Assembly (NCBI GenBank): GCA_041673165.1
Contig: JBAYYI010000003.1
Span: 2,090 to 66,089, forward strand
DNA length: 64,000 nt
DNA from: Bacteroidales bacterium
GTDB taxonomy: Bacteria > Bacteroidota > Bacteroidia > Bacteroidales > P3
Reading direction: 5' to 3'
Shown: positions 10,051-61,965 of the stretch, piece by piece
Layout: each line of letters starts with the position of its first letter
Position numbering within the stretch: position 1 is the first letter of the stretch
The notes under the pieces: generated by a model
What the model was told of the DNA's origin: nothing
The model's input: the letters and a program-made list of their open reading frames with translations, nothing else
The model's database searches: none
Made by a program: the position numbers and the translations under genes

Positions 10051-10082
10051 ATACGCTGAAAGGATTTGCTGAATCAAAGGAA
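10051..10082 (+). repeat. Dispersed 31-nt intergenic core element, copy 1
   Basis: ATACGCTGAAAGGATTTGCTGAATCAAAGGAA. The shared consensus with the copies at 27058, 36065 and 52296 is CGCTGAAAGrATTTnnTGAATCAAAG. Confidence 0.8.
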
Positions 10083-10151
10083 TAAAAAATTAAAACGCCG
10101 TAATAATTTTCTAAAACAAAGAAAGGATTTCCTAAAATAGCGTTTCATTTC

Positions 10152-10238
10152 AGTAAGGTGCCACCTTACACATAGTAACCCGCCACCTTACTCGAGTAAC
10201 CTGCCACCTTACTATAAGTAACCAGGCACCTTACTCAA
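10152..10238 (+). repeat. Four tandem 21/22-bp units with core GTAAnnnGCCACCTTAC
   Basis: GTAA begins at 10153, 10175, 10196 and 10218. The first unit, GTAAGGTG-C-CACCTTAC, is a perfect palindrome. Confidence 0.85.
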
Positions 10239-10264
10239 TTAATCCTTAGTTTTAAGAAACTAAA

Positions 10265-10300
10265 CCTTTGATTTGCAATATTATTACTTGATATTTCAAC
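10265..10300 (+). repeat. 36-bp conserved box, copy 1
   Basis: CCTTTGATTTGCAATATTATTACTTGATATTTCAAC. It matches 60568-60603 at 32 of 36 positions. Confidence 0.8.
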
Positions 10301-10372
10301 TCTCATTATCTATCATATTCAATTTCTTGCTAATTCAAGCCTTAAACCTATAAGAAATCCAAAACAATTTCC

Positions 10373-17700: not shown

Positions 17701-19032
17701 TTATCTATTTGACTTTTGACGTCTTAGTTCTGAAATATTGTTTTTTGAAAGACGAAGCATATCAAGAAGAGGTCGTCCAGCAGGGCAAGTATAAAGACAG
17801 GTTCCACATTCTATGCAGTCCATTGCAAATGCTTTTTCTGCATCTTCCCAAAGACGGTTCTCTGCTAACTGAGCAATAGTTATTGGCTCTAAGCCCATTG
17901 GACAAACAGTAATACATTTACCACAACGCAAACAATTCGTTTCTTCCTTTCGAGAAGATTCCTTATTTGACATAACTAAGATTGCAGAAGTCGTTTTAAC
18001 AGTTGGAGCTGATAGGTCGCTAATTGCTTTTCCCATCATTGGCCCTCCACTAATAACCTTACCTGTATCTTCTGGAAGTCCTCCGAAAGCATCTATTATC
18101 GATTGCATTGGAGTTCCCACCCTTACTAATAGGTTCTTTCTTTGTTTAACACTCTTTCCTGTTAGGGTTAGGACGTTCTCAATTAGTGGTTTGTTTTTTT
18201 GAACAGCATGATATATTGCTTCTGCTGTTCCAATATTATTTACTACACAACCTACTTCAATAGGGAGCTTACCACTTGGCACCTCTCTTTTGGTTAGTGC
18301 ATATATTAATTGCTTTTCTGCTCCTTGAGGATATTTTGTTTTAAGTGGGACAATCTCAATCCCATCAAATTGCTTAGCCAATTCTGTCATTCGCTTAATA
18401 GCAACTGGCTTATTTTCTTCAATTCCAACTAAGGCTTTCGTAACACCTAATGCTTTTTTCATTATTTGAATCCCAATTAAGGACTCTTCAACGCTTTCAG
18501 ACATTAATCTATAGTCGGATGTTAGGTAAGGCTCACATTCAGCCGCATTAATAATAAGAAATTCAGCTGTTTTGCCAGGAGGAACCATATATTTGATATG
18601 AGTAGGGAAGGCAGCTCCACCTAAACCCACAACACCCATTTCTTTTATCTTTTCAATTATCTCTTTTGAGTCAAGCTTAATTTCTCTTATTATATCTGTT
18701 GAATTATCAATCCCCTCCATCCACTCATCTTCTTCAACTTCAATATAAAGTGCTTGTTTCTTATAGCCAGTGAAGTCGGTTGCAAAATCAATCTTAGATA
18801 TTATTCCAGTATATGGAGAATGTGTATTAGCACAAATAAACTGTTCTGCCTTAGCAATAAGTTGTCCTGTCTTTACTCTATCTCCTTTTTGAACAATAAG
18901 AGTTGAGGGTGCTCCCAAATGTTGAGAAACAAAAACAACGCCCTGTTTTGGTAAAGGAAAAACTTCAATTGAACAATCATTAGTTAACTTATTTTCTTCT
19001 GGGTGAGCTCCACCCCTGCGAAATGTCTTCAT
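17701..19032 (-). CDS. rnfC: Rnf electron-transport complex subunit C
   Basis: 443 aa. GLGGAAFPTHIK (NADH/FMN site-like) and two ferredoxin motifs, CLRCGKCITVCP and CIECGTCLYTCP. Confidence 0.9.
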   Translation of the reverse strand: MKTFRRGGAHPEENKLTNDCSIEVFPLPKQGVVFVSQHLGAPSTLIVQKGDRVKTGQLIAKAEQFICANTHSPYTGIISKIDFATDFTGYKKQALYIEVEEDEWMEGIDNSTDIIREIKLDSKEIIEKIKEMGVVGLGGAAFPTHIKYMVPPGKTAEFLIINAAECEPYLTSDYRLMSESVEESLIGIQIMKKALGVTKALVGIEENKPVAIKRMTELAKQFDGIEIVPLKTKYPQGAEKQLIYALTKREVPSGKLPIEVGCVVNNIGTAEAIYHAVQKNKPLIENVLTLTGKSVKQRKNLLVRVGTPMQSIIDAFGGLPEDTGKVISGGPMMGKAISDLSAPTVKTTSAILVMSNKESSRKEETNCLRCGKCITVCPMGLEPITIAQLAENRLWEDAEKAFAMDCIECGTCLYTCPAGRPLLDMLRLSKNNISELRRQKSNR

Positions 19033-19916
19033 TGCTTTGATAGTTTTGTTAAATTTACTTGATTTGCTTTAGGAGTCTCGATTGTTTCTTTTTCCTTTTT
19101 TGGAGGGAAGTTGACTTCGTGAATAGCTCCTGTTGGACATACCTCAACACATTTGCGGCAAAGCTTACATTTATTAAAATCAATGTAAGCAAGATTATTT
19201 GTTAGGGTTATTGCTTCAAAAGGACAAGCCTTTACACATAGACCACAACCAATACAACTTACATTACAGTTTTTCTTTGCAATAACGCCTTTCTCAGTGT
19301 TTACACAACTTACAAATACTCTTCTATTCTTTATTCCTTTATTCCTTAACTCAATAACCTTTCTTGGACATTCCTTAACGCAAGCACCACAAGCAACACA
19401 TTTCTCCTCATCCACAACTGGAAGAAGGGTAATTGGGTCAATATGTATTGCATCGAAAGGACATACCGCAACGCAGTTCCCTAAACCTAAGCAAGAATTA
19501 GGACAACCTCCCTCTGATGCCATATTTAGGTGAGCATATAAGCAATCCTGAACGCCTTCATACTTAACTTTAGATGTTGTGTTGATTTTTCCCCCATTAC
19601 AACGAATAACTGCAATTTGAGGAGCAGCTTTACTTGCTTCCAAGCCCATGATTTTTGCGATATCTTCCATTACTATATTCCCTCCAACTGGGCATCGCAT
19701 ACCATCAAGGGAATTGTTCTTTACAATGTTTTCAGCCATTGAACGGCAGCCTGCATAACCACATCCCCCACAATTAGCTCCTGGGAGCATATCTGTTAGG
19801 GTATCTATTCGCGGGTCTTCAATTACTTTAAACTTTTGGGCAACAAAATAAAGAATTATAGCTGCTAAGGTTGCAGTCAAGACCAAAACCAAAATTGAGA
19901 AAATAATAGTTGACAT
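19029..19916 (-). CDS. rnfB: Rnf electron-transport complex subunit B (polyferredoxin)
   Basis: 295 aa. N-terminal TM helix, CGGCGYAGC, and several CxxCxxCxxxCP clusters. The stop overlaps the rnfC start. Confidence 0.9.
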   Translation of the reverse strand: MSTIIFSILVLVLTATLAAIILYFVAQKFKVIEDPRIDTLTDMLPGANCGGCGYAGCRSMAENIVKNNSLDGMRCPVGGNIVMEDIAKIMGLEASKAAPQIAVIRCNGGKINTTSKVKYEGVQDCLYAHLNMASEGGCPNSCLGLGNCVAVCPFDAIHIDPITLLPVVDEEKCVACGACVKECPRKVIELRNKGIKNRRVFVSCVNTEKGVIAKKNCNVSCIGCGLCVKACPFEAITLTNNLAYIDFNKCKLCRKCVEVCPTGAIHEVNFPPKKEKETIETPKANQVNLTKLSKQ

Positions 19917-19953
19917 AATATCTTAAACTTTATGTAGATAAAATTACAAGATG

Positions 19954-19961
19954 CAAAATTA
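19954..19961 (-). promoter_or_regulatory. -7 box TAATTTTG (rnf operon)
   Basis: Plus-strand CAAAATTA, 38 nt upstream of the rnfB start at 19916. Confidence 0.5.
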
Positions 19962-20404
19962 CAATAAAATAATATTAATTCCTCTTAAAACTACTTTTAA
20001 TTGCCTTTGAGTATGCGTATTAAAGTTAAAAAACGAGTCGTTATATTATCTTATTTTATTGATTGATTGCAAAGTAAATAGATAAATTCCCTATATCCAT
20101 TAATAATATTGAAATAGTAATAATATATCCATAAGACAAGACTATAAACAATAAGAATATCGAACTTCAAATATTTTTTTAATAAATCAAGGGGCAGAGG
20201 TTGGCACTAAGCTAACTTGTCTTAGTGCAACTCTGAACCTATTAAAGAACATTTACTGAGTGTCATCATTTCACTCTACTAAGGGGGTGTGAAACGGTGA
20301 AACAAGATTCATTTTCAATAGATTGCAAAAAGTAAGTGAAACAAACGTCAAAAAGAGGCGAAAATGGGCAAAAAAATCTGTAGAATTAAAAAGCATTTAC
20401 AGTG

Positions 20405-20530
20405 TCAAAGAATCGACTTAATGAATCAAAGAAAGGATTTCCTTAATCAAAGAAATAAAAAATTAGATCAAAGAACTAATCTCGTGAATCAAAGATCTAA
20501 TTTCTTGAATCAAAGACTTAGAAAACTAAA
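20405..20530 (+). repeat. Six tandem units at an exact 21-bp step with conserved word TCAAAGA
   Basis: TCAAAG starts at 20405, 20426, 20447, 20468, 20489 and 20510. The array abuts the stop of the NlpC/P60 gene (20535). Confidence 0.9.
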
Positions 20531-20534
20531 ACCC

Positions 20535-21317
20535 CTATAAGTATCTTTTGATTTTATTTAGTTGGTGGCTGTAAGTGGAAGAATGTTGAGGTAGTATTCC
20601 TTTATTATCAATTTGGTCTATTCTTACTTGACCAGATGCATGAATGATTAGATTGGATCCTATATATATTCCTACATGAGTGATTTTACCTTCTGTGTTA
20701 TTAAAAAAACATAAGTCTCCTTTTTCGGCTTCTTCGAGTGTTTTTACTTCTTCTCCTTGGGTTATTTGGTCTTTGGCGTCTCTTAGTAGATTTACTCCAA
20801 TTTGTTTATAACACATTTGAGTAAAGCCTGAACAATCTATTCCATAAAGGCTTTTCCCTCCCCATAAATAAGGAGCAGAAACGTATTTTAGGGCTATAGT
20901 AATAAGAGAAAGTATATTGGTTTTTGTTTTATTTATAGATTTAGGTTCTAATATTTGAAAAATTATATCTCCTAATTGGAATTTCTCTCCTATAAGCTGG
21001 GAACCTAAATATATAGGATAAATTATTCTCTGCTTTGTCTTTTGATTGGTTTGACTGATATAAGTTTGATCTAGGGTAACTATTTGTTTGGATGTTGAAG
21101 TGTAGGCATTGTAGTCTGTCTGACTTATTTCGATGGTTTGCTTTTGGTCAATCCAACCCACATACTGGTCATCAAAGTTTTCGATTAGGATTTTGTCTTC
21201 TATCTGCTCAAGAATCTTAAAGCAGTCGCCAAAGATTAGTTGGCTTATCATTTCACTTCTCTCGCTATTTTCTTTCCTAATAGGAACAATTGCTATGTGG
21301 CAAAATCCGTATCGCAT
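20535..21317 (-). CDS. NlpC/P60 (C40) family peptidoglycan peptidase with N-terminal SH3-like region
   Basis: 260 aa. YLWGGKSLYGIDCSGFTQMCY (catalytic Cys), ITHVGIYIG and IHASG (His). Confidence 0.8.
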   Translation of the reverse strand: MRYGFCHIAIVPIRKENSERSEMISQLIFGDCFKILEQIEDKILIENFDDQYVGWIDQKQTIEISQTDYNAYTSTSKQIVTLDQTYISQTNQKTKQRIIYPIYLGSQLIGEKFQLGDIIFQILEPKSINKTKTNILSLITIALKYVSAPYLWGGKSLYGIDCSGFTQMCYKQIGVNLLRDAKDQITQGEEVKTLEEAEKGDLCFFNNTEGKITHVGIYIGSNLIIHASGQVRIDQIDNKGILPQHSSTYSHQLNKIKRYL

Positions 21318-27006: not shown

Positions 27007-27010
27007 AAAA

Positions 27011-27090
27011 ATGAATCACTGAAAGGATTTTTTAGATCTTTGATCTAATTTTTTATTCCTTTGATTCAATAAATTCTTTCAGCGATTCAT
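27011..27090. repeat. 80-bp palindromic element containing an inverted copy of the 31-nt core
   Basis: ATGAATCACTGAAAGGATTT (27011-27030) versus the reverse complement of AAATTCTTTCAGCGATTCAT (27071-27090): 18 of 20 match. The centre holds AGATCTTTGATCT. The core copy lies on the minus strand at 27058-27089. Confidence 0.8.
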
Positions 27091-27158
27091 TTTTCTCTAT
27101 CCTAATACTGCGATTTAATCAAAGAAATTAGTAATTTTGTTGATTAATATGTTGTTTT

Positions 27159-36040: not shown

Positions 36041-36119
36041 ACCAATCAAAGAAAGAGAAAAATGAAACGCTGAAAGAATTTACTGAATCAAAGAAAGAAT
36101 TTTTTAAAGTGGCGTTTCA
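36041..36119 (+). repeat. Core element copy (36065-36096) inside an 8-bp stem / 41-nt loop structure
   Basis: AAACGCTGAAAGAATTTACTGAATCAAAGAAA. TGAAACGC (36063-36070) pairs with GCGTTTCA (36112-36119). TCAAAGA occurs at 36046 and 36088, which is 42 bp apart. Confidence 0.8.
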
Positions 36120-36144
36120 GAAAATTATTACGCAGTCTTATTTT

Positions 36145-43606: not shown

Positions 43607-44521
43607 TTATTCTTGCTCTATAATTACTTTAAATTTTTCTACAGTCAAGGTAGTTTTTCTTCCAATAACATAAGCTTGGTTGTTTTCTTTTATATGTCCA
43701 ATTGGAATGTTGAAAGCAACTGGGAAATCATAGTCTTGGACAGTATCCATAATTATTCTATGTGGAGCTTTCCCAAATCGAATAAAATTATCGTGCATAT
43801 CAGTCATTCCTCCAACAATTAAACCCTTCAAATCCTTTAACTTACCTGCTCTTCTCAAAGCCTGCATCATCCTATCGATATGATAAATATACTCGTCTAA
43901 GTCTTCAATAAATAAAATCTTGTCTTTAGTGTCGCCAAAGCTATTTGAACCAAGCAAGCTATAAAGAACCGATAAGTTTCCCCCAATAAGTTCTCCCTCA
44001 GCCTTGCCTTTCCTATTCATTATATACTTCTTATAATAGTTTTTGTTCTCTCCCTCAAACAATATCTTCTTTAAACTAATCACAGCATTTGAAAAGAAAT
44101 CATCCTCCGTAATATTAATAGGCATAATTGCGTGAATGGTTTCAATATTATAGTTGAAATAGATATGGGAAAGCAAGACCGTTGGGTCAGAATAGCCTAT
44201 TATCCATTTAGGGTTTTGAATAAATAAAGAGAAATCAAGCAAATCAATAATCCTAACAGTCCCATAACCCCCTCTTGCACAAAAGATAGCTTTTATCTCC
44301 TTATTATCTAAGAAAGATTGCAAGTCCTTAGCCCTCTCATTATCAGAACCAGCAAATTGATTCTTTTTCAAACCAATGCTTTTCCCAATAACAGGCACCA
44401 AACCCCAAGAAACAAGTAGCTTAATCGTAGCCCCCACCTCCTCAATACTAATCTTACGAGCAGTTGCAACAATCCCAATCTTATCTCCTTTCTTAAGTAG
44501 TTCCGGTCTCTTAGTCATCAT
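43607..44521 (-). CDS. LD-carboxypeptidase (peptidase S66, muramoyltetrapeptide carboxypeptidase-like)
   Basis: 304 aa. Motifs: GDKIGIVATA, FCARGGYGT, IGYSDPT (nucleophile Ser), GH near the C-terminus. Confidence 0.8.
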   Translation of the reverse strand: MMTKRPELLKKGDKIGIVATARKISIEEVGATIKLLVSWGLVPVIGKSIGLKKNQFAGSDNERAKDLQSFLDNKEIKAIFCARGGYGTVRIIDLLDFSLFIQNPKWIIGYSDPTVLLSHIYFNYNIETIHAIMPINITEDDFFSNAVISLKKILFEGENKNYYKKYIMNRKGKAEGELIGGNLSVLYSLLGSNSFGDTKDKILFIEDLDEYIYHIDRMMQALRRAGKLKDLKGLIVGGMTDMHDNFIRFGKAPHRIIMDTVQDYDFPVAFNIPIGHIKENNQAYVIGRKTTLTVEKFKVIIEQE

Positions 44522-44792: not shown

Positions 44793-44800
44793 GATCTCCA

Positions 44801-44882
44801 ATTCATGCCATGATATGACCAACTTCATGCCATGAATTGGGAACTATCATGGCATGATGTTGACGGTATCATGGCATGATTC
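44801..44882. repeat. Four 22-bp units, two TCATGCCATGA followed by two TCATGGCATGA, forming an 80-bp dyad
   Basis: The word starts at 44803, 44825, 44847 and 44869 (exact 22-bp step). The two halves are reverse complements of each other. Confidence 0.9.
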
Positions 44883-44943
44883 TTTGATTGAAGTGGCGAT
44901 TTAGGAGTTTGTTTCTTTGTTTTTGGACTAGGAAATGGGCAAA

Positions 44944-52273: not shown

Positions 52274-52347
52274 CAAACGCTGAAACAGTAAATTAATACG
52301 CTGAAAGAATTTCTTGAATCAAAGATCTAATTTTTTAAATCAAAGAA
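52274..52347 (+). repeat. Core element copy (52296-52326) plus partial copy, phased at 21 bp
   Basis: ATACGCTGAAAGAATTTCTTGAATCAAAGATC. CGCTGAAA occurs at 52278 and 52299. TCAAAGA occurs at 52319 and 52340. Confidence 0.8.
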
Positions 52348-52351
52348 AGGA

Positions 52352-54556
52352 TTATACTGGAATTGAAATCTTTACCGTTGTTCCTTTATTTAATTCAGAT
52401 TCTAAAGAGATTTTTCCTCCTATAAGTTCAATATATGCCTTAGCAATTGGTAAGCCCAATCCATTACCACCATAAGATCTTGTCAATTCAGAATCAACTT
52501 GGCGAAATGGGAAGAAAACAACCCTTTTCATCTCTTCTGGAATTCCAATACCTTTATCAATTACGCTGATTTCAGCATTTGAATTATCAATCATACATTT
52601 AACTAAGACATCTCCTTTTTGAGTAAATTTGATAGAATTATCTATTATATAATTTACTACTTTTCCTATTTTTTCCTCATCTGAATTAAGAATAAACTCA
52701 TCACAAGAGTGATTTATCTCGCAATTAATGATTATTCCCTTTTCTTTTGCGACAAAGTTTTGTTCATAAACAATGTTTTTTATAAGCGATAATAGGTCAA
52801 ATGGTTTTATTTGAGGTACTATTTGGTTGGAGTAAATTTTAGAAATCTCAATTATGTTATCAATGATAATAATTAATTTTTCTGTATTGTTAGCTATTTG
52901 TGATGAGAACTCTTTTAGATCTTCTAAGCTATTATCCTTTTGTGAGATTAGTTTTGTAAATCCTATTATTGAATTAAGAGGTGTTCTTACTTCATGTGAC
53001 ATATTACGTAAGAATGAAGATTTTAATTTGTCACTTTCTTCGGCTCTTTCTTTTGCTGCAATTAATTCTTTTTCTGAATTGAGTTCTTCTGTTATATCTC
53101 TACCAACTCCAATAACCTTTAGAGGCTTTCCTTCACTATTTCTTATTAGTGTTCCCTGCGATTTGATATGAATAATACGTCCATCTTTGTGAATAACTCG
53201 ATATTCTGTATCATATTCTTTTTCCCCTTTTATGGCTAATTGGTTAGTTTCCTTGAATTTTTCTTTGTCATCAGGATGGATTAAGTCGAATAAAGAATTC
53301 AAATTATTCTTTTCTGAATTTTCTATTCCGAAAACTTCGCATACTCTATTACCCCATGTCAGATTACCACTTTCTATGTCCAATTCCCAAACGGCTAATT
53401 TAGCAGATTGAGCTGCTAATTGAAGTCCAGAGTCTTTTTCTATTAAATCATTCTGTATTTTTTTGTTTAATTCTATTTCACAACTAAGTGAATTATTGGT
53501 ATTTATTAGTTCCTCAGTCCTTTCAAATACTCGCCTTTCAAGTTCTTCTTCTACCTTTTTTCGTCTTGAAATTTCCTTTTGTAATTGTATATATTGCCCC
53601 TCAAGCCTTCTTTCTATTTCTTTCTGTTTAGTGCGATCAATTCCAAAACAGATTGTTTTTATTAGCTTCCCCTCTGGAGAGTAAATTCCATTATTTGTCC
53701 ATGCAATCCATAACTTCTCTCCATTTTTCTTTACATTTTCGTTCTCGCTACTATAATAATTTTCAGGATTTTTTGAAACAATGCTTAATTTATTCTTTAG
53801 GTCATAACCAAATGAGTCAAACTCATTGACAATTGTGCCAACAATATTCTTGCCAACAATTTCTTCATCCTTAAAATGAAATAGTCTTTTCCCAAATGCA
53901 TTGATAAATAATATAATTCCCTCAGGGTCTAATTCTAATACAATGCTTGTTGACTGATCGATTAATGTGCGATATTTTATTTGGTTCTCAACTAACTTAT
54001 TTTCTATATCTCTTCGTTCCGATATTTCTTTCTCTAAGCTCTTATTTAAATTATATAGCTGCTCTGTTCTCTCAATAATTTTTTGTTCAAGATTACTTTT
54101 ATATTCATTTGTATCTATATCCAATCGTGCCCTTTGGCTTATATCAAGGATATTCCCAAGTAAAAGTTTAGTATTCCCAAATTTTACAATGCTTGCAAAT
54201 ATCATTAAATAAACAATTTCTCCATTTTTCTTTCTCCCACGGATTTCATACTTAATAGGAGTAAAATCACTTGAAAGTCTAAGATTCTTTTTTTCTTTTA
54301 ATAATGCTTGGTCTTCTGCTATTACTATCTCTTCAGGACTAATACCAATAAGTTCGTCTTTTTCGTATCCAAATATTTCATTAAATGCTTGGTTAGAATA
54401 CTGTAACTTATTTTCATTTAGAATAAATACACCAGTAAGAGAATTCTCACAAAAGGCATGAAATAATATATTATCATCCTTTTCAAACTCTTCAACTGAA
54501 ATAGTTTTGATGGGATTATCTATATTATCTTGAAAAGTGGGTTTGTTATTCTTCAT
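52352..54556 (-). CDS. Multi-PAS sensor histidine kinase (cytoplasmic, no receiver domain)
   Basis: 734 aa. Three PAS-like modules separated by coiled-coil linkers, an H-box (FLRNMSHEVRTPLNSIIGF), an N-box and G-boxes (DKGIGIP, GGNGLGLPIAKAY). Confidence 0.8.
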   Translation of the reverse strand: MKNNKPTFQDNIDNPIKTISVEEFEKDDNILFHAFCENSLTGVFILNENKLQYSNQAFNEIFGYEKDELIGISPEEIVIAEDQALLKEKKNLRLSSDFTPIKYEIRGRKKNGEIVYLMIFASIVKFGNTKLLLGNILDISQRARLDIDTNEYKSNLEQKIIERTEQLYNLNKSLEKEISERRDIENKLVENQIKYRTLIDQSTSIVLELDPEGIILFINAFGKRLFHFKDEEIVGKNIVGTIVNEFDSFGYDLKNKLSIVSKNPENYYSSENENVKKNGEKLWIAWTNNGIYSPEGKLIKTICFGIDRTKQKEIERRLEGQYIQLQKEISRRKKVEEELERRVFERTEELINTNNSLSCEIELNKKIQNDLIEKDSGLQLAAQSAKLAVWELDIESGNLTWGNRVCEVFGIENSEKNNLNSLFDLIHPDDKEKFKETNQLAIKGEKEYDTEYRVIHKDGRIIHIKSQGTLIRNSEGKPLKVIGVGRDITEELNSEKELIAAKERAEESDKLKSSFLRNMSHEVRTPLNSIIGFTKLISQKDNSLEDLKEFSSQIANNTEKLIIIIDNIIEISKIYSNQIVPQIKPFDLLSLIKNIVYEQNFVAKEKGIIINCEINHSCDEFILNSDEEKIGKVVNYIIDNSIKFTQKGDVLVKCMIDNSNAEISVIDKGIGIPEEMKRVVFFPFRQVDSELTRSYGGNGLGLPIAKAYIELIGGKISLESELNKGTTVKISIPV

Positions 54557-54594
54557 ATTGGTATGTGTTAAATCAAAGACTAAGAAAATCAGCT

Positions 54595-55522: not shown

Positions 55523-58414
55523 TTAGTTATTGTGTTCAGCCTTTGGCATGGTGAAAATAAAATCACTTCCTTTGCCTAATTCTGATTCTACCCAAATAAG
55601 TTCTTCATGTTTTTGTATAAGTTCTTTAACAATCGATATCCCTAATCCAGTGCCTTTTTCCCCTTGGGTTCCTACTTTTGTTTCGTTAGAATCGCTAATA
55701 AATAGTTGATTTGCATATTCCTGATCCATTCCAACTCCGTTATCAGAGATGGTTATTTGAATCTTATTGTCTTTTTCCTTTGATTCAACCTTGATTTCAC
55801 CATTTTTGTTGGTGAACTTGATTGAATTACTTATTAGGTTTCTCAATATTGTTTTCAATATATTGATATCTGCTTCAATATATAAGTTGTCTGGAATTGA
55901 ACAAGAAAGGGTTATATTTTTAACTTGAGCATGTGTGTTTAAATTCTTAAATGTATGTAAAACAACTGCTTTAAGTTCAAACACTTTTTTGTCAACATCC
56001 ATTATACCTGACCTAACTCTAAGCCAAACAAGTATTTCTTCCATTAGTTTGTATCCCTTTTCAGAACTTTCGTTTATGATACCTGTAAATTCTTTTATAT
56101 TCTCCTTATCTATTTCCTCTAAGTTATCTAAAATATATTGAGAGAATCCTATTATTGATGTGAAAGGATTTTTTAAATCATGAGCAAGTATCCCAATAAA
56201 CTTGTCCTTATCGAAGTTAATCTTTTGAAGATCTTTGGTAAAGGCAATGATTTTCTCTTCTTTTTCTTTTCTTTCAGATATATCAAAGAAAGTCACAACT
56301 GCACCGATGGCTTCTCCTTGGTGTATTTGAGGGTATGAGAAATACTCTGCAGGGAAATATGAACCATCTTTTCTCCAAAACACCTCATCAGCCGAATGCA
56401 TGCCTATATTGTTTGTAAAAGCTTTGTAAATAATGCAGTCATGTATGTTCATAGGATTTCCATCTATATCTGAATGATGAATTAGGTTATGTATGTTTTG
56501 ACCTAGTAAATCCTCTTCTTTTGAATAGCCAAGAATATTTAGGCAAGCTTTATTAGCAAATGTGCAATTCCCATTATTATCTATTCCATATATACCTTCT
56601 GCGGTTGAGTTTAATAGTAGGCTTATCTTTTCTTCTTTTTCTTTTCTTTCAGTTATATCAATGAAGGTTAGAACAGCTCCAATAACTTCTTCTTTATGTA
56701 TTTGAGGGTGAGAAAAGAGCTCAACTGGAATTTTTGAACCATCTTTTTTCCAAAACACCTCATCAGACGAATGCATACCTTTACCGTTCTTAAAAGCATT
56801 TTCAATAGTGCAATCTTGCGTTTTGATAGGTTTGCCTTCAATATCTGAATGATGAATTAGGTTATGCATGTTTTGACCTAATAATTCTTCTTCTTTTGAA
56901 TAGCCAAGTATATTTAGGCAAGCTTGGTTAACAAATGTGCAATTCCCATTATTATCTAATCCATAAATACCTTCAGCAGTAGAGTTTAATATTAGGTTTA
57001 TCTTTTCTTCTTTTTCTCTAATAATATCTTTTTCCTTCAATATCTCTGTAATATCTCTGCTTATACTAATAATTCCGATAACTTTCCTATTATCGTCAAA
57101 CAAAGGAATTTTATTAGTCTGTTCTTGTCTCGTTTCTCCATTAACATCACAGAACAAATTAATCTTCCCTTTTAGTTGCTTGCCTGTTTGAAAAACATTA
57201 TCATCTTCTTCTTGATACTCTTTTGCTCTATCCTCAGGGACAAGATCTCCATAGCTTTTACCAATAATATCTTTCCAACTATTATAGCCAGTAAGTGTTG
57301 CAAGACTTTGGCTACAAAAAACTATTTTCCCATCTTCATTCTTGAAGAGTACATAATCAGTTATATGTTCCAAAAAAGTTTCAAAGTAACGGTTGAATAA
57401 TAAATACTCTTGTTCTTGTTCTTTCTCATGAGTTAAATCTTGAAGAGTAAGGAAAACTCCATAGCCTTCAACTTTTAGCGGTTCTGAACTTAGTCCAATC
57501 CATTTGATTTGGTTTTCTTGTTGTAATCCAACTTCAAAATTAGAAATAGAAACTCCTTTTTCCAATGTTTTTATACCCGGACATTCATCATCAGGAACAG
57601 GGCTTAGGTCAGGATAAATAAAGCTAAAGTTTTTTGAATGCAAATTAACACTTAGTAAATCTTCTTTTGAAGCTCCTAAAATATTTTCTGTAGCTCTATT
57701 GCAGTCAATAATATTACCCTCCTTGTCAGTAAGAATAACCCCCTCATGAAGAGTTTGAAAAATTGATTTGTATTTATGTTCACTTTCCTCAACCTTAACA
57801 AAAACATCCTTATAAGCAGAGTTTAATGTGTTGAGTTCAATATTATTCTTATCAAGTTCTTTTACCAATTTAATAAAAGCTTTATTGAAATAACTTATTG
57901 AACTAATAAGGATTATTGCTGTAATAAATATAGTAAATAATGCATATATCCAGCTTATAAAATTAGCGTTAAAAGCATTAAAGTCTATTTCTCTAACAAA
58001 TAGCTTGTTTAAAATAGAATATTCAATTACAATATAGCCTAAGAGGGCAATAATAGAATAGATTATTCCTAATTTTTTACCGTATAAAACAGTAATTATT
58101 GCAATACCAATAAGACATAAGAAGTGACCACCAGAAAATCCAAAGTATAAATTCCCTACAAATCCTGAAATAAGGAATAATGAACCGACAATATGAGATT
58201 TTAGAATAATGGATAGTTTGTTTCTTAAAAGGAAAATAACCGAAATGAGTATAAACATGCTACAAAACAAAACATAATTAATATCAAATCCATATTCAAT
58301 AATTTGAATTAAAGAGAAAGCAATTGCAGGAAGGGCTAAAATTAATAAACTAAGAATAGAATATTTGAATAGTTTCTCTCTAGCTGAATTCATTTCCGTT
58401 TTTAAGTCTTTCAT
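55523..58414 (-). CDS. Membrane-bound multi-PAS sensor histidine kinase
   Basis: The track ORF starts at 58504, which would overlap the tRNA-Cys terminator. I moved the start to the ATG at 58414 (MKDLKTEMNSAREK), 48 nt downstream of a TATTTTTG -7 box. It has about 6 TM helices, 4-5 PAS modules, an H-box (ILAHDLKNPFTSIIGF) and an HATPase domain (DNGVGM, GTGLGISIVKEL). Confidence 0.8.
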   Translation of the reverse strand: MKDLKTEMNSAREKLFKYSILSLLILALPAIAFSLIQIIEYGFDINYVLFCSMFILISVIFLLRNKLSIILKSHIVGSLFLISGFVGNLYFGFSGGHFLCLIGIAIITVLYGKKLGIIYSIIALLGYIVIEYSILNKLFVREIDFNAFNANFISWIYALFTIFITAIILISSISYFNKAFIKLVKELDKNNIELNTLNSAYKDVFVKVEESEHKYKSIFQTLHEGVILTDKEGNIIDCNRATENILGASKEDLLSVNLHSKNFSFIYPDLSPVPDDECPGIKTLEKGVSISNFEVGLQQENQIKWIGLSSEPLKVEGYGVFLTLQDLTHEKEQEQEYLLFNRYFETFLEHITDYVLFKNEDGKIVFCSQSLATLTGYNSWKDIIGKSYGDLVPEDRAKEYQEEDDNVFQTGKQLKGKINLFCDVNGETRQEQTNKIPLFDDNRKVIGIISISRDITEILKEKDIIREKEEKINLILNSTAEGIYGLDNNGNCTFVNQACLNILGYSKEEELLGQNMHNLIHHSDIEGKPIKTQDCTIENAFKNGKGMHSSDEVFWKKDGSKIPVELFSHPQIHKEEVIGAVLTFIDITERKEKEEKISLLLNSTAEGIYGIDNNGNCTFANKACLNILGYSKEEDLLGQNIHNLIHHSDIDGNPMNIHDCIIYKAFTNNIGMHSADEVFWRKDGSYFPAEYFSYPQIHQGEAIGAVVTFFDISERKEKEEKIIAFTKDLQKINFDKDKFIGILAHDLKNPFTSIIGFSQYILDNLEEIDKENIKEFTGIINESSEKGYKLMEEILVWLRVRSGIMDVDKKVFELKAVVLHTFKNLNTHAQVKNITLSCSIPDNLYIEADINILKTILRNLISNSIKFTNKNGEIKVESKEKDNKIQITISDNGVGMDQEYANQLFISDSNETKVGTQGEKGTGLGISIVKELIQKHEELIWVESELGKGSDFIFTMPKAEHNN

Positions 58415-58461
58415 AAAAAGGAGTTTTAAAATGATAAGGTTAATATATTGATAACAATACG

Positions 58462-58469
58462 CAAAAATA
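58462..58469 (-). promoter_or_regulatory. -7 box TATTTTTG (membrane PAS kinase)
   Basis: Plus-strand CAAAAATA, 48 nt upstream of the ATG at 58414 and downstream of the tRNA terminator. Confidence 0.45.
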
Positions 58470-58492
58470 CAATAAATGTTATAATATAAAAA

Positions 58493-58518
58493 CAAAAAAG
58501 CCACCTTGTGAGGTGGCT
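58493..58518 (-). terminator. Rho-independent terminator downstream of tRNA-Cys
   Basis: On the minus strand AGCCACC-TCACAA-GGTGGCT is followed by TTTTTT (plus-strand AAAAAA at 58493-58498). Confidence 0.7.
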
Positions 58519-60470: not shown

Positions 60471-60567
60471 TGAAAATTAAGCTCACAATCCATAAAAAGG
60501 CAATAAATAATTATTAAATAGAAAATCTTTCGCATGGAAAACAAAGAAAGGAAGTCGCAACCTGACA

Positions 60568-60603
60568 CCTTTGATTTACAATTTTATTACTTGACATTCC
60601 AAC
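60568..60603 (+). repeat. 36-bp conserved box, copy 2
   Basis: CCTTTGATTTACAATTTTATTACTTGACATTCCAAC. It matches 10265-10300 at 32 of 36 positions. Confidence 0.8.
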
Positions 60604-60709
60604 TATAATATAAAAGCATAAGTAATTTGCTGGATTATAAGCTGGATTTGTTCTTGGTTCAGTAAGTTCCTAAGTAAGGAATCCAATAAAAGGGAAATGT
60701 TTTGTTTTT

Positions 60710-60733
60710 TCATTTATTTTGTTTTCCTTTGCA
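60710..60733 (+). repeat. 24-nt exact repeat TCATTTATTTTGTTTTCCTTTGCA, copy 1 (within a similar block of about 55 nt)
   Basis: Identical 24-mer at 61884-61907. The flanking upstream 30 nt is also similar (AGGAATCCAATAAAAGGGAAATG versus AGGAATCAAGTGAGGAAATT). Confidence 0.85.
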
Positions 60734-60808
60734 GTGTTGAAATAGCTTAGCTCTTAGTTATGACGTCTTTGGTCTAAGCCTTATTTAAGAAAACCAACCA
60801 AATAATAA

Positions 60809-60840: not shown

Positions 60841-60919
60841 CAAAACAAAAGCTAGAGTTTATAATTGCCTGATAACAACAAAAGAAAACAAACTAATAAC
60901 AAAGAAATTCATAAAACAA

Positions 60920-61245
60920 TAAGGCTTTAAATTGATTTAGATAAGGTATCTCTCAATTTTTATAAGCTCATTTTGAATCTGCATAAGCTCATTTTGAATC
61001 TTTACAAGGTAATTGCATACAATAACCGCCATTTTTTGCCCCAAAAACCGCCGGTTTTTGACTGAAAAAAGACTTTTTTTGATTAGAAACCGCCGGTTTT
61101 TGGGGTAAAACTCGGCAGTTTTTGGGTCTCAACTCCTTATGAAAATCTAAAAAGAGCTTATAAGGATTTAAAATGAGCTTATGTAGATTGAAAAAAAGCT
61201 TGTTACGAATTAGAAATAGCTTATATAGATTCAAAAATTACATAT
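60920..61245. repeat. Imperfect palindrome of about 300 bp built from phased 21-bp modules (dyad axis at 61072)
   Basis: ATAAGCTCATTTTGAATCT occurs exactly at 60962-60980 and 60983-61001. Five AAACCGCCGGTTTTTG-type units start at 61024, 61046, 61067, 61088 and 61109. Inverted copies of the first word lie at 61143-61161, 61164-61182 and 61185-61203. 61039-61057 mirrors 61087-61105 with one mismatch. Confidence 0.9.
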
Positions 61246-61274
61246 AATAACCCAATCAGATAACGTTATAGTAA

Positions 61275-61373: not shown

Positions 61374-61799
61374 ATGCCAATAAAATATTTTAGATTAAAG
61401 AAGAAAATTACAATAAACTCAATTCCGGTGGATAGGTATATTGCTAATATTCAAATCGAAACCAATGCTGACCTTGAAATGATTTCGGAGATAATTGAGA
61501 AGCAAAGTACTATGAGTAGGGGTGATATTATGGGAGTGCTTGCTCAACTTGAACCTGCAATTTGGTTTATGCTGGAAAATGGACATCCTGTAACGCTTGG
61601 AGTTTTAGGGACTTTCTATCCTGCAATTGATGCATTGTCGATGGATAGCCCAGAGAAAGTTACTACTAGGACTATTAAAAGATTTAGAACAATTTTCAAG
61701 CCCTCAAAATATCTAAAGAAAAGGTTTAAAGATGTACAATTTGTTCTTGGCGACAACAAGGTCAGGGAAGTAAGATACAAGAAAAAACCTCTTGAATAG
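61374..61799 (+). CDS. HU-family (Bacteroidota histone-like) DNA-binding protein
   Basis: 141 aa. The pattern EMISEIIEKQSTMSRGDIMGVLAQLEPAIWFMLENGHPVTLGVLGTFYP....KRFRTIFKPSK resembles the Bacteroidota-specific HU-like family often found in accessory islands. Confidence 0.6.
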   Translation: MPIKYFRLKKKITINSIPVDRYIANIQIETNADLEMISEIIEKQSTMSRGDIMGVLAQLEPAIWFMLENGHPVTLGVLGTFYPAIDALSMDSPEKVTTRTIKRFRTIFKPSKYLKKRFKDVQFVLGDNKVREVRYKKKPLE

Positions 61800-61883
61800 T
61801 TACAGAATTACCAGAATAGTATAAAATTCAGTCCTCTAACTTCATATTAAGCAGGAATCAAGTGAGGAAATTATTTTGATTTG

Positions 61884-61907
61884 TCATTTATTTTGTTTTC
61901 CTTTGCA
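61884..61907 (+). repeat. 24-nt exact repeat TCATTTATTTTGTTTTCCTTTGCA, copy 2 (upstream of the KAP NTPase)
   Basis: Identical to 60710-60733. It ends 58 nt before the KAP NTPase ATG. Confidence 0.85.
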
Positions 61908-61965
61908 CAGTCATAAGACTTTAATTTTGATTTAATGACACTATATTTTAACCTTTAATGATTGT

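Follow-up and report, generated by a model that had tools for sequence, protein, structure and literature searches.

The window analysed here is a 64,000-nucleotide (nt) stretch of contig JBAYYI010000003.1 from a Bacteroidales bacterium (assembly GCA_041673165.1). Among its minus-strand genes are rnfB (19029-19916) and an open reading frame (ORF) for an NlpC/P60 peptidase (20535-21317), in which the Pfam domains NLPC_P60 and SH3_16 are found. In the gap between them the word TCAAAGA begins on the plus strand at positions 20405, 20426, 20447, 20468, 20489 and 20510, an exact 21-nt step, and the sixth unit ends at 20530, leaving 4 nt before the NlpC/P60 stop codon (20535-20537). A preliminary description had drawn attention to this series, hereafter the focal array, and both its positions and its closeness to the stop codon proved exact. 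On the other side, 488 nt separate the array from the start of rnfB. TCAAAGA occurs 37 times on the two strands of the window, against 25.5 expected, and a perfect series of six cannot be chance. Tandem Repeats Finder assigns the focal array a period of 21 with 0% indels, and a self-match lag scan (lags of 8-44 nt) finds arrays only at lags of 21/42 and 22/43.

Within the focal array, positions 1-7 of the unit are invariant and positions 20-21 nearly so. The spacers (positions 8-21) agree from unit to unit at only 4-11 of 14 positions, and whole units have 11-18 of 21 positions in common. The preliminary description took this pattern as evidence against a recent tandem duplication and for a selected word between freely drifting spacers. 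Its first point holds, given the low similarity of the units and the presence of an array at the same spot in relatives whose NlpC/P60 proteins are 93, 90 and 82% identical. The second does not. For four of the six focal spacers, units at non-orthologous loci provide matches at 13-14 of 14 positions; unit 4 has an identical counterpart in locus L035 and unit 5 in locus L026. Because the spacers recur at unrelated loci yet differ between neighbours, the focal array is a string of distinct family modules and not one drifted unit.

A dispersed family of 21-nt modules

The window holds five further family copies, making six places in all, whose units share a common 21-nt register (Table 1). The dispersed core GAAAGAATTTCTTGAATCAAAGA, which the preliminary description had placed at four other gaps, is indeed found at all of them: at 27058 (minus strand), 36072 and 52303 with at most three mismatches (0.01 such matches expected), and in a further copy at 10053 (dispersed-repeat family D1 of the window).

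Beyond the window, a pattern scan for GAAAGRATTTNNTNAATCAAAG over 185,579 species, with one genome per species, returned at least 88 loci; loci are numbered L here and are pieces of about 8 kb. Among the 80 matches listed, 47 come from three Bacteroidales metagenome-assembled genomes (MAGs), namely JAGNRX01 (25), DUQY01 (14) and JAQVXZ01 (GCA_028708845.1; 8). Nearly every other genome among those listed has one or two isolated matches, the exceptions with in-register, family-like arrays being a Ca. Onthomorpha locus (L060) and a Bacteroidales MAG from yak rectum (L067). A metagenome scan for three phased TCAAAGA words gave 120 loci, three of which belong to this family, the rest being mostly unrelated perfect tandem repeats. 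Nothing related was found by pattern scan and blastn in viral contigs or phage and plasmid records, the viral contigs yielding chance matches only. Since the genome-scan matches concentrate in a few Bacteroidales MAGs and the viral, phage and plasmid records contain nothing related, the family is lineage-restricted.

A position weight matrix (PWM) was made from the units and its matches were chained into arrays. The result is 69 arrays, each of 2-6 units, of which 63 are intergenic; six units is the top size class, to which the focal array belongs. Where the search pattern did not constrain the units, most information lies at C2, G6 and T18-G19-A20-A21, followed by A11, and a conserved core of about 11 nt, TGAAwCnnnGA, straddles the unit boundary. 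By inspection, the units are non-palindromic. A common grammar is seen over 53 arrays, consisting of a head, a few recurring middle unit types and a tail. As head, the array is preceded by AAAATGAA. The tail is of one of four kinds: a unit of the ACAAAGACTTAG type, to which focal unit 6 belongs; a unit in inverted orientation (xCnnnGaTTCATTTT) that forms a terminal inverted repeat with the head and closes a hairpin; a ATTACGCAGTCTTATTTTTT module; or a neighbouring array of 22-nt units (GTAAGGTGGCAGGTTAC) followed by inverted 21-nt units. In the focal array, unit 1 is head-like, units 2-5 are of the middle types AAGGATTTCCTTAA, AATAAAAAATTAGA, ACTAATCTCGTGAA and TCTAATTTCTTGAA, and unit 6 is of the tail type CTTAGAAAACTAAA. 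Five loci have the same 82-nt capped form, the termini of which (AATGAAwCnnnG) are complementary at 11-14 of 14 positions. The inverted end is missing in most arrays, including the focal one.

The register is kept strictly. Neighbouring strong units lie 21 nt apart in 150 cases and 42 nt apart in six, 156 of the 159 distances being multiples of 21, and no distance of 20, 22, 41 or 43 nt occurs among them. This holds across several genomes and across unit types whose spacers agree at only 4-9 of 14 positions. Small indels are present in the non-coding block beside the focal array when the same relatives are compared. Because that adjoining block has indels while the arrays have none off-register, the missing indels point either to a constraint on unit length, which would fit units being read two helical turns apart, or to turnover in which units are always copied whole.

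Both neighbouring genes are known for 42 arrays, which lie in 11 convergent, 5 divergent and 26 tandem gaps. In the tandem gaps, 22 arrays are nearer the 3' end of the upstream gene and two nearer a 5' end, with two ties (p=3.6e-5), and arrays lie at a median of 27 nt from a stop codon. Relative to the upstream gene, the arrays are evenly divided in orientation (13 same, 13 opposite), and a strand-specific RNA role is therefore unlikely. Array strand likewise has no link to local GC skew, a proxy for replication direction, although this comparison (17:24) is a weak test on 8-kb pieces. The focal site is one of many copies, and the gaps of relatives with NlpC/P60 proteins 75% and 74% identical contain no array, so a site special to the NlpC/P60-rnfB pair is not borne out.

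Turnover at orthologous sites

Twelve sites are comparable between genomes. Between species with flanks 75-97% identical, arrays keep their place and their register while their contents are altered. At the focal gap, L005 (NlpC/P60 93% identical) has mainly ACGAAGA in place of TCAAAGA, with one exact 21-nt unit present twice, 42 nt apart. The gap in L012 (75%) retains only a tail-type remnant by the stop codon, and that in L014 (74%) is 86 nt long and has no array. Elsewhere, the number of units differs between orthologous arrays (L027 and L032, L042 and L090, L029 and L089) or the entire contents do (L073 and L099). The word itself can be exchanged: L039 carries ATGAAGA/ACGAAGA where L058 carries TCAAAGA/TCAAAGA, with almost identical spacers. 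Across family and orthologous units the alternatives are TCAAAGA, ACGAAGA, ACAAAGA, ACGCTGA and TCACTGA.

The preliminary description proposed selection on a phased word, in which case the word should outlast the spacers in orthologous gaps. Summed over eight alignable orthologous pairs, the word differs at 16 of 210 positions and the rest of the unit at 45 of 420 (Fisher p=0.25), an outcome that the description had itself counted against its proposal. The window compared with the 90% relative alone gives 3/112 for the word and 17/224 for the rest (p=0.09), and in one pair the word changes faster (5/35 against 3/70). The word is thus not clearly more constrained than the spacers, and because it is replaced by discrete alternatives, no single word is under selection. 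What stands of the proposal is the 21-nt phase, which is strictly kept family-wide.

Other changes affect units or blocks as a whole. Between two strains (L008 and L048), four of five differences fall in unit 6, which suggests replacement of the whole unit. In the capped element at 27010-27091, the inner 45 nt or so are inverted between the window and L005, L006 and L007 (L005 4157-4308), the outer arms remaining collinear, and at that site L011 (1189-1340) carries a perfect inverted repeat of 29 bp. The inversion appears to have arisen by recombination between inverted units.

We propose that the focal array is an ordinary, if long, copy of a lineage-specific interspersed mosaic repeat family of 21-nt modules, and put the probability of this at roughly 65%. 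The family exists, with the distribution and grammar described above; its copies sit behind genes in either orientation, they are non-coding, and their units turn over and invert. Slippage, or unequal exchange between the 11-nt cores that units have in common, would make arrays grow and shrink in whole 21-nt units, and single units would be replaced by other units of the family through gene conversion or slippage at TGAAwCnnnGA. Recombination of inverted units would account for inversion. Copies are likely tolerated only behind genes, where they would persist because insertion there is least harmful. The strict 21-bp register across unit types suggests that something reads the units in phase, most likely a putative protein that recognises the core and either propagates or binds the family. 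Neither NlpC/P60 nor rnfB would be specifically regulated by the focal copy; at most, an A/U-rich hairpin formed by units 3 and 5, with its U-run, might aid the ending of the NlpC/P60 transcript.

Several points weigh against this proposal. No target-site duplication was found around the five doubly terminated 82-nt elements, and no mobilising or binding protein was found, the genes between inverted array pairs being housekeeping genes. The presence of arrays at orthologous sites in three species suggests low mobility. Neutral dynamics of the repeats do not by themselves readily account for the lack of off-register indels, which could signify a host function. Further, the loci were chosen by a pattern containing AATCAAAG, which biases the word census and possibly hides other architectures, and the gene calls within them are simple ORF calls of at least 90 amino acids (aa).

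Table 1. Members of the repeat family in the window and features of the gap that holds the focal array
Feature	Position	Strand	Remarks
Focal array	20405..20530	+	Six 21-nt units; PWM score 13.5-20.7 per unit
58-aa ORF	20364..20540	+	ATG start; array read as heptad (L)NQRxxxL
A/U-rich hairpin	20457..20506	-	Complementary spacers of units 3 and 5 (AAAUUAGAUC / GAUCUAAUUU), then U-run
Conserved single-copy non-coding block	20170..20400	-	Between array and rnfB; not of the family
Family copy	10053..10150	+	Four units (10053-10136) and inverted cap ATAGCGTTTCATTT; beyond terminator of TonB-dependent receptor gene; orthologous copy in L049
Remainder of composite element	10152..10292		Four 22-nt units AGTAACCnGCCACCTTACTnn, then inverted 21-nt units; composite of 21-nt and 22-nt units recurs in L017, L022, L049, L057, L093
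82-nt hairpin form	27010..27091		AATGAA, three units, inverted cap (inverted repeat I15 of the window); arms 13/14 complementary
Family copy	36046..36122	+	Three units (36046-36108) and cap GTGGCGTTTCAG; convergent gap between nitroreductase and ABC transporter genes; identical in L051
Family copy	52277..52360	+	Four units; convergent gap, abutting both stop codons; orthologue in L095
Lone tail-type unit	54573..54593	+	TCAAAGACTAAGAAAATCAGC; 85% identical to matching part of focal unit 6 (family D5)

Alternative explanations

The best-placed alternative, which we consider possible though unlikely, is that a lineage-specific DNA-binding protein, of a nucleoid-associated, insulating or termination-linked kind, uses the units as its sites. 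Such a protein would contact a single helix face at intervals of two turns and mark gene ends, with the 21-bp ruler itself under selection. The register described above, with 156 of 159 distances at multiples of 21 and none at 20, 22, 41 or 43 in several genomes, argues for this, as do the conservation of C2, G6 and TGAA despite an A+T-rich genome, the retention of arrays at orthologous sites across species where flank identity drops to 75-88%, and the turning of the core into a palindrome (TGAAyC-NNN-GrTTCA) in capped copies. However, the word is no more conserved than the spacers between orthologues and alternatives are swapped in, unit number is freely variable, the array is missing from the focal gap of the 74-75% relatives, no candidate protein was found, and there is no GC-skew bias (17:24). 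Rather less likely still is a version in which the arrays are phased landing pads of a gene-end-marking protein, the two-turn ruler being selected while single units turn over. If that were so, the arrays would represent a chromosome-wide cis element of array type that is not known from bacteria so far.

A role in ending transcripts is improbable. The focal array would then be an intrinsic terminator or 3'-end stabiliser of NlpC/P60, and other members would act likewise. The minus strand of the focal array can indeed form a hairpin (-11.3 kcal/mol) that begins 24 nt into the array and is followed by a T-rich tail, and the capped 82-nt member, with a strong fold (z -6.2) and A5 and T5 flanks, resembles a two-way terminator. 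When an array comes within about 50 nt of a stop codon, another terminator is usually not detected (34 of 54 gene-array pairs). Yet the focal array folds no better than shuffled sequence (z +0.33 on the plus strand and -0.92 on the minus strand), its stem is of A/U pairs only with a 24-nt loop, and a consensus scan of the gap found no terminator, and its promoter-like matches (9) exceed the level after shuffling (5.7 ± 2.6) only a little. Arrays at least 55 nt from the stop codon usually have a good terminator hairpin in between (12 cases), most direct arrays lack a hairpin, and a better terminator-like hairpin lies 300 nt further on. The units 3/5 hairpin is predicted to be at best a weak, A/U-only terminator of the NlpC/P60 transcript.

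That better hairpin (20195-20235, minus strand), followed by UUGAUUUAUU, is the distal of two hairpins in the conserved non-coding block that separates the array from rnfB. Lying between the stop codon and this next terminator-like hairpin, the focal array is probably within an NlpC/P60 3' untranslated region (UTR) of about 350 nt. The block is 88% identical in L008 and L048 and 77% in L005, and is conserved also in L011; it has no alignable counterpart in L012, where the gap sequence is different, or in the short gap of L014. Among the relatives compared, it is found only in those that also have the array. Neither the block nor the gap as a whole has a credible Rfam match, the search of the gap returning no family at the gathering score and noise only at E values up to 10. 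An alignment of four sequences, too few for covariation, shows 1 compensated pair of 37. The block is possibly a small RNA, or else an element of the 3' UTR.

In L005 (11420-16795) and L008 (7044-12419), a three-gene operon resembling those for NADH-dependent [FeFe]-hydrogenases lies between the array and the rnfB position; its Pfam domains are 2Fe-2S thioredoxin-like, Complex1_51K and Fe_hyd_lg_C. It is absent from the window (19917-20534), and the rnf genes of L005 are not the next genes along.

The preliminary description also offered a protein-titrating RNA, in which a minus-strand 3' UTR carrying UCUUUGAUU six times would sponge an RNA-binding protein. The probable location of the array in a 3' UTR suits this, but array orientation is random (13:13), the focal array has no significant fold (z +0.33 and -0.92) and no structure presents the motifs, which are swapped for other words in orthologues. 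With no credible Rfam match either, we hold the idea to be very improbable, and a protein-sponging small RNA of the CsrB/RsmZ kind was rejected on the orientation, fold and Rfam results.

As 21 nt make seven codons, the 58-aa ORF over the focal array could in principle encode a small basic heptad-repeat protein, and a gene caller has annotated it on one public contig. The ORF is open with an ATG, many family heads have an in-frame ATG (AAAATGAATCAAAGA), and the corresponding frame is open in 22 of 53 family arrays, against about three after shuffling. The orthologous gaps, reached through NlpC/P60 homologues, tell against a gene. The ORF is stopped at codon 22 in L008 and L009 (NlpC/P60 90% identical), where TCAAAGA has become TTAAAGA, and at codon 21 in L005 (93%), and it lacks an ATG in L011 (82%). 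Stops occur in 31 of the 53 arrays, the ACGCTGA-type units common in the family placing TGA in that frame, no reading frame being open in the majority of arrays. A Pfam search of the 58-aa ORF gave no match, and a protein would fit poorly with inverted caps and random orientation. The ORF is a repeat artefact and not a gene; the coding reading, rejected on the broken orthologues, the frame statistics and the lack of a Pfam match, is scarcely credible.

Equally hard to credit is a set of replication-origin iterons or a pair-type (LytTR-like, 9+12 bp) transcription-factor site acting on rnfB. Classic iteron and LytTR spacing consists of 21-22 bp direct repeats with a conserved word, which the family fits, but its copies, dozens per genome, follow unrelated genes, no replication-initiator gene is near the focal array (its neighbours being RnfB and NlpC/P60), no plasmid or phage similarity was found, viral contigs gave chance matches only, and the array is 488 nt from the rnfB start, with the hydrogenase operon intervening in L005 and L008. 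Plasmid or phage origin iterons were rejected on the chromosomal copy number, the neighbouring genes and the lack of plasmid or phage matches. LytTR-type sites, two 9-bp direct repeats 12 bp apart and closely upstream of the promoter they regulate, were rejected despite the fitting spacing, as arrays have up to six units and lie nearer gene 3' ends (22 of 24 scorable).

Relation to known repeats and other features of the window

Dispersed copies, intergenic non-coding location, modular build and a narrow lineage place the family among the small interspersed mosaic repeats of the BOX/BIME/NIME/BrickBuilt kind. A literature search on the word and on such repeats in Bacteroidales found nothing past BrickBuilt and BOX, and the family is new and undescribed, though of a known kind of element.

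BrickBuilt, from Porphyromonas gingivalis, is a 23-nt minisatellite within an element resembling a MITE, or miniature transposable element with inverted repeats (PMC4596501). Like the present family, it is intergenic, belongs to the Bacteroidales, has many dispersed copies and has a narrow host range (PMC4596501). Both consist of short tandem units with conserved and variable positions, vary in unit number per locus, have head and tail (leader and tail) modules at their flanks and are sometimes falsely annotated as ORFs. The present family differs in its unit of 21 nt, in its shorter arrays (2-6 units, against up to 22.8), in having several distinct unit types where BrickBuilt units are near-identical, and in the absence of indels from its arrays, which reach 0-6% in BrickBuilt. 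It lacks the long leader or tail of about 300 nt, and it occurs in several species-level genomes, whereas BrickBuilt occurs in one species. The BrickBuilt terminal repeat GAGACCTTTGCA has only one near-match in the window, at chance level (58991), so that no sequence relation is seen. BrickBuilt itself was accordingly rejected, the unit being 21 nt rather than 23 and the GAGACCTTTGCA-type terminal repeat missing.

BOX elements of Streptococcus pneumoniae have the structure boxA-boxB(n)-boxC (PMC3049150). They share with the present family a modular grammar with variable internal tandem modules, a dispersed intergenic distribution favouring regions downstream of genes, and changes in size through gain and loss of modules, which in BOX occur between strains. 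BOX modules are 45-59 nt long with stable RNA structure, in contrast to the 21-nt units described here, and BOX is a Firmicutes element whereas this family is from Bacteroidales. The terminal repeats of BOX resemble those of an insertion sequence; no such partner was found for this family.

The mosaic of direct and inverted units at gene 3' ends recalls other elements. BIME/REP and REPIN elements in Proteobacteria and NIMEs in Neisseria are mosaic intergenic arrays of short direct or inverted motifs at gene 3' ends, some of which form hairpins, and the 82-nt capped form resembles a REPIN doublet. REP units are imperfect palindromes of 20-40 nt associated with the RAYT transposase; the unit of this family is, by contrast, a non-palindromic 21-mer in strict tandem register. 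Iterons of theta plasmids are direct repeats of 17-22 bp with an inverted half-site, found at one origin beside a replication-initiator gene. The likeness lies in the spacing of direct repeats at two helical turns, in a core that is conserved beside a variable remainder and in an inverted copy at one end; unlike iterons, the family has dozens of chromosomal copies behind unrelated genes. A CRISPR array, which has identical repeats of at least 23 nt, unique spacers and cas genes, was rejected because the conserved part is only about 11 nt and the apparent spacers are recurring module types shared across loci.

Classical cut-and-paste (DDE-mobilised) MITE behaviour is not shown, no target-site duplication being present at the five elements with both termini. 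The family is not filed as a MITE because neither a partner transposase, among the genes between inverted array pairs, nor a target-site duplication was found.

The family has practical consequences for annotation. It yields false small ORFs, one of them on a public contig, and, behind many genes of these MAGs, false regulatory arrays; annotators could mask it if they had a family model. Several public contigs of relatives (L006, L007, L010 and L011) end inside the array or right after it, which suggests that the family breaks short-read assemblies. As a compact bacterial mosaic repeat that holds an exact 21-bp register over several unit types and species, it could be used to ask if selection maintains the helical phasing of short repeats or if such phasing merely follows from turnover by whole units. 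The family is a marker of an anaerobic, poorly known lineage of Bacteroidales from landfills, digesters and guts, where it might be employed for strain typing.

The composite element in the window includes a second repeat family, of three or four tandem 22-nt units (10152-10242; AGTAACCnGCCACCTTACTnn), each a quasi-palindrome (GTAAGGTGGCAGGTTAC). These occur in either orientation and are mostly flanked by direct and inverted 21-nt units. The whole composite is a foldback-like structure of about 240 nt, upstream of a Bacteroidetes-type promoter box (TAnnTTTG). Part of its far arm is a 62-nt dispersed repeat found at 10264-10325 and 60567-60628 (76% identical; ACCTTTGATTTRCAAT.TTATTACTTGA.ATT.CAAC), which holds the complement of the family word. 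Another repeat pair, at 60691-60760 and 61865-61934, is 74% identical and contains TTTGTTTTCCTTTGCA.

At 60917-61248, between the genes for GTP cyclohydrolase I and an HU-HIG DNA-binding protein (61374-61799), is a large imperfect palindrome with arms at 60943-61071 and 61073-61201 that are 71% complementary. Repeats of 21 nt, ATAAGCTCATTTTGAATCTGC and its complement, make it up and surround three AAACCGCCGGTTTTTG motifs; the structure looks like an origin or iteron-type region or a binding region of the HU-HIG protein. An array of 22-nt period at 44793-44889, in which TCATGCCATGA occurs twice and is followed by its near-complement TCATGGCATGA, also twice, lies about 270-370 nt upstream of a minus-strand operon start at 44521 and looks like a set of operator sites. 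Finally, a 375-nt tandem duplication (56256-57017; two copies, 84% identical) lies inside a 993-aa ORF on the minus strand (55523-58504).

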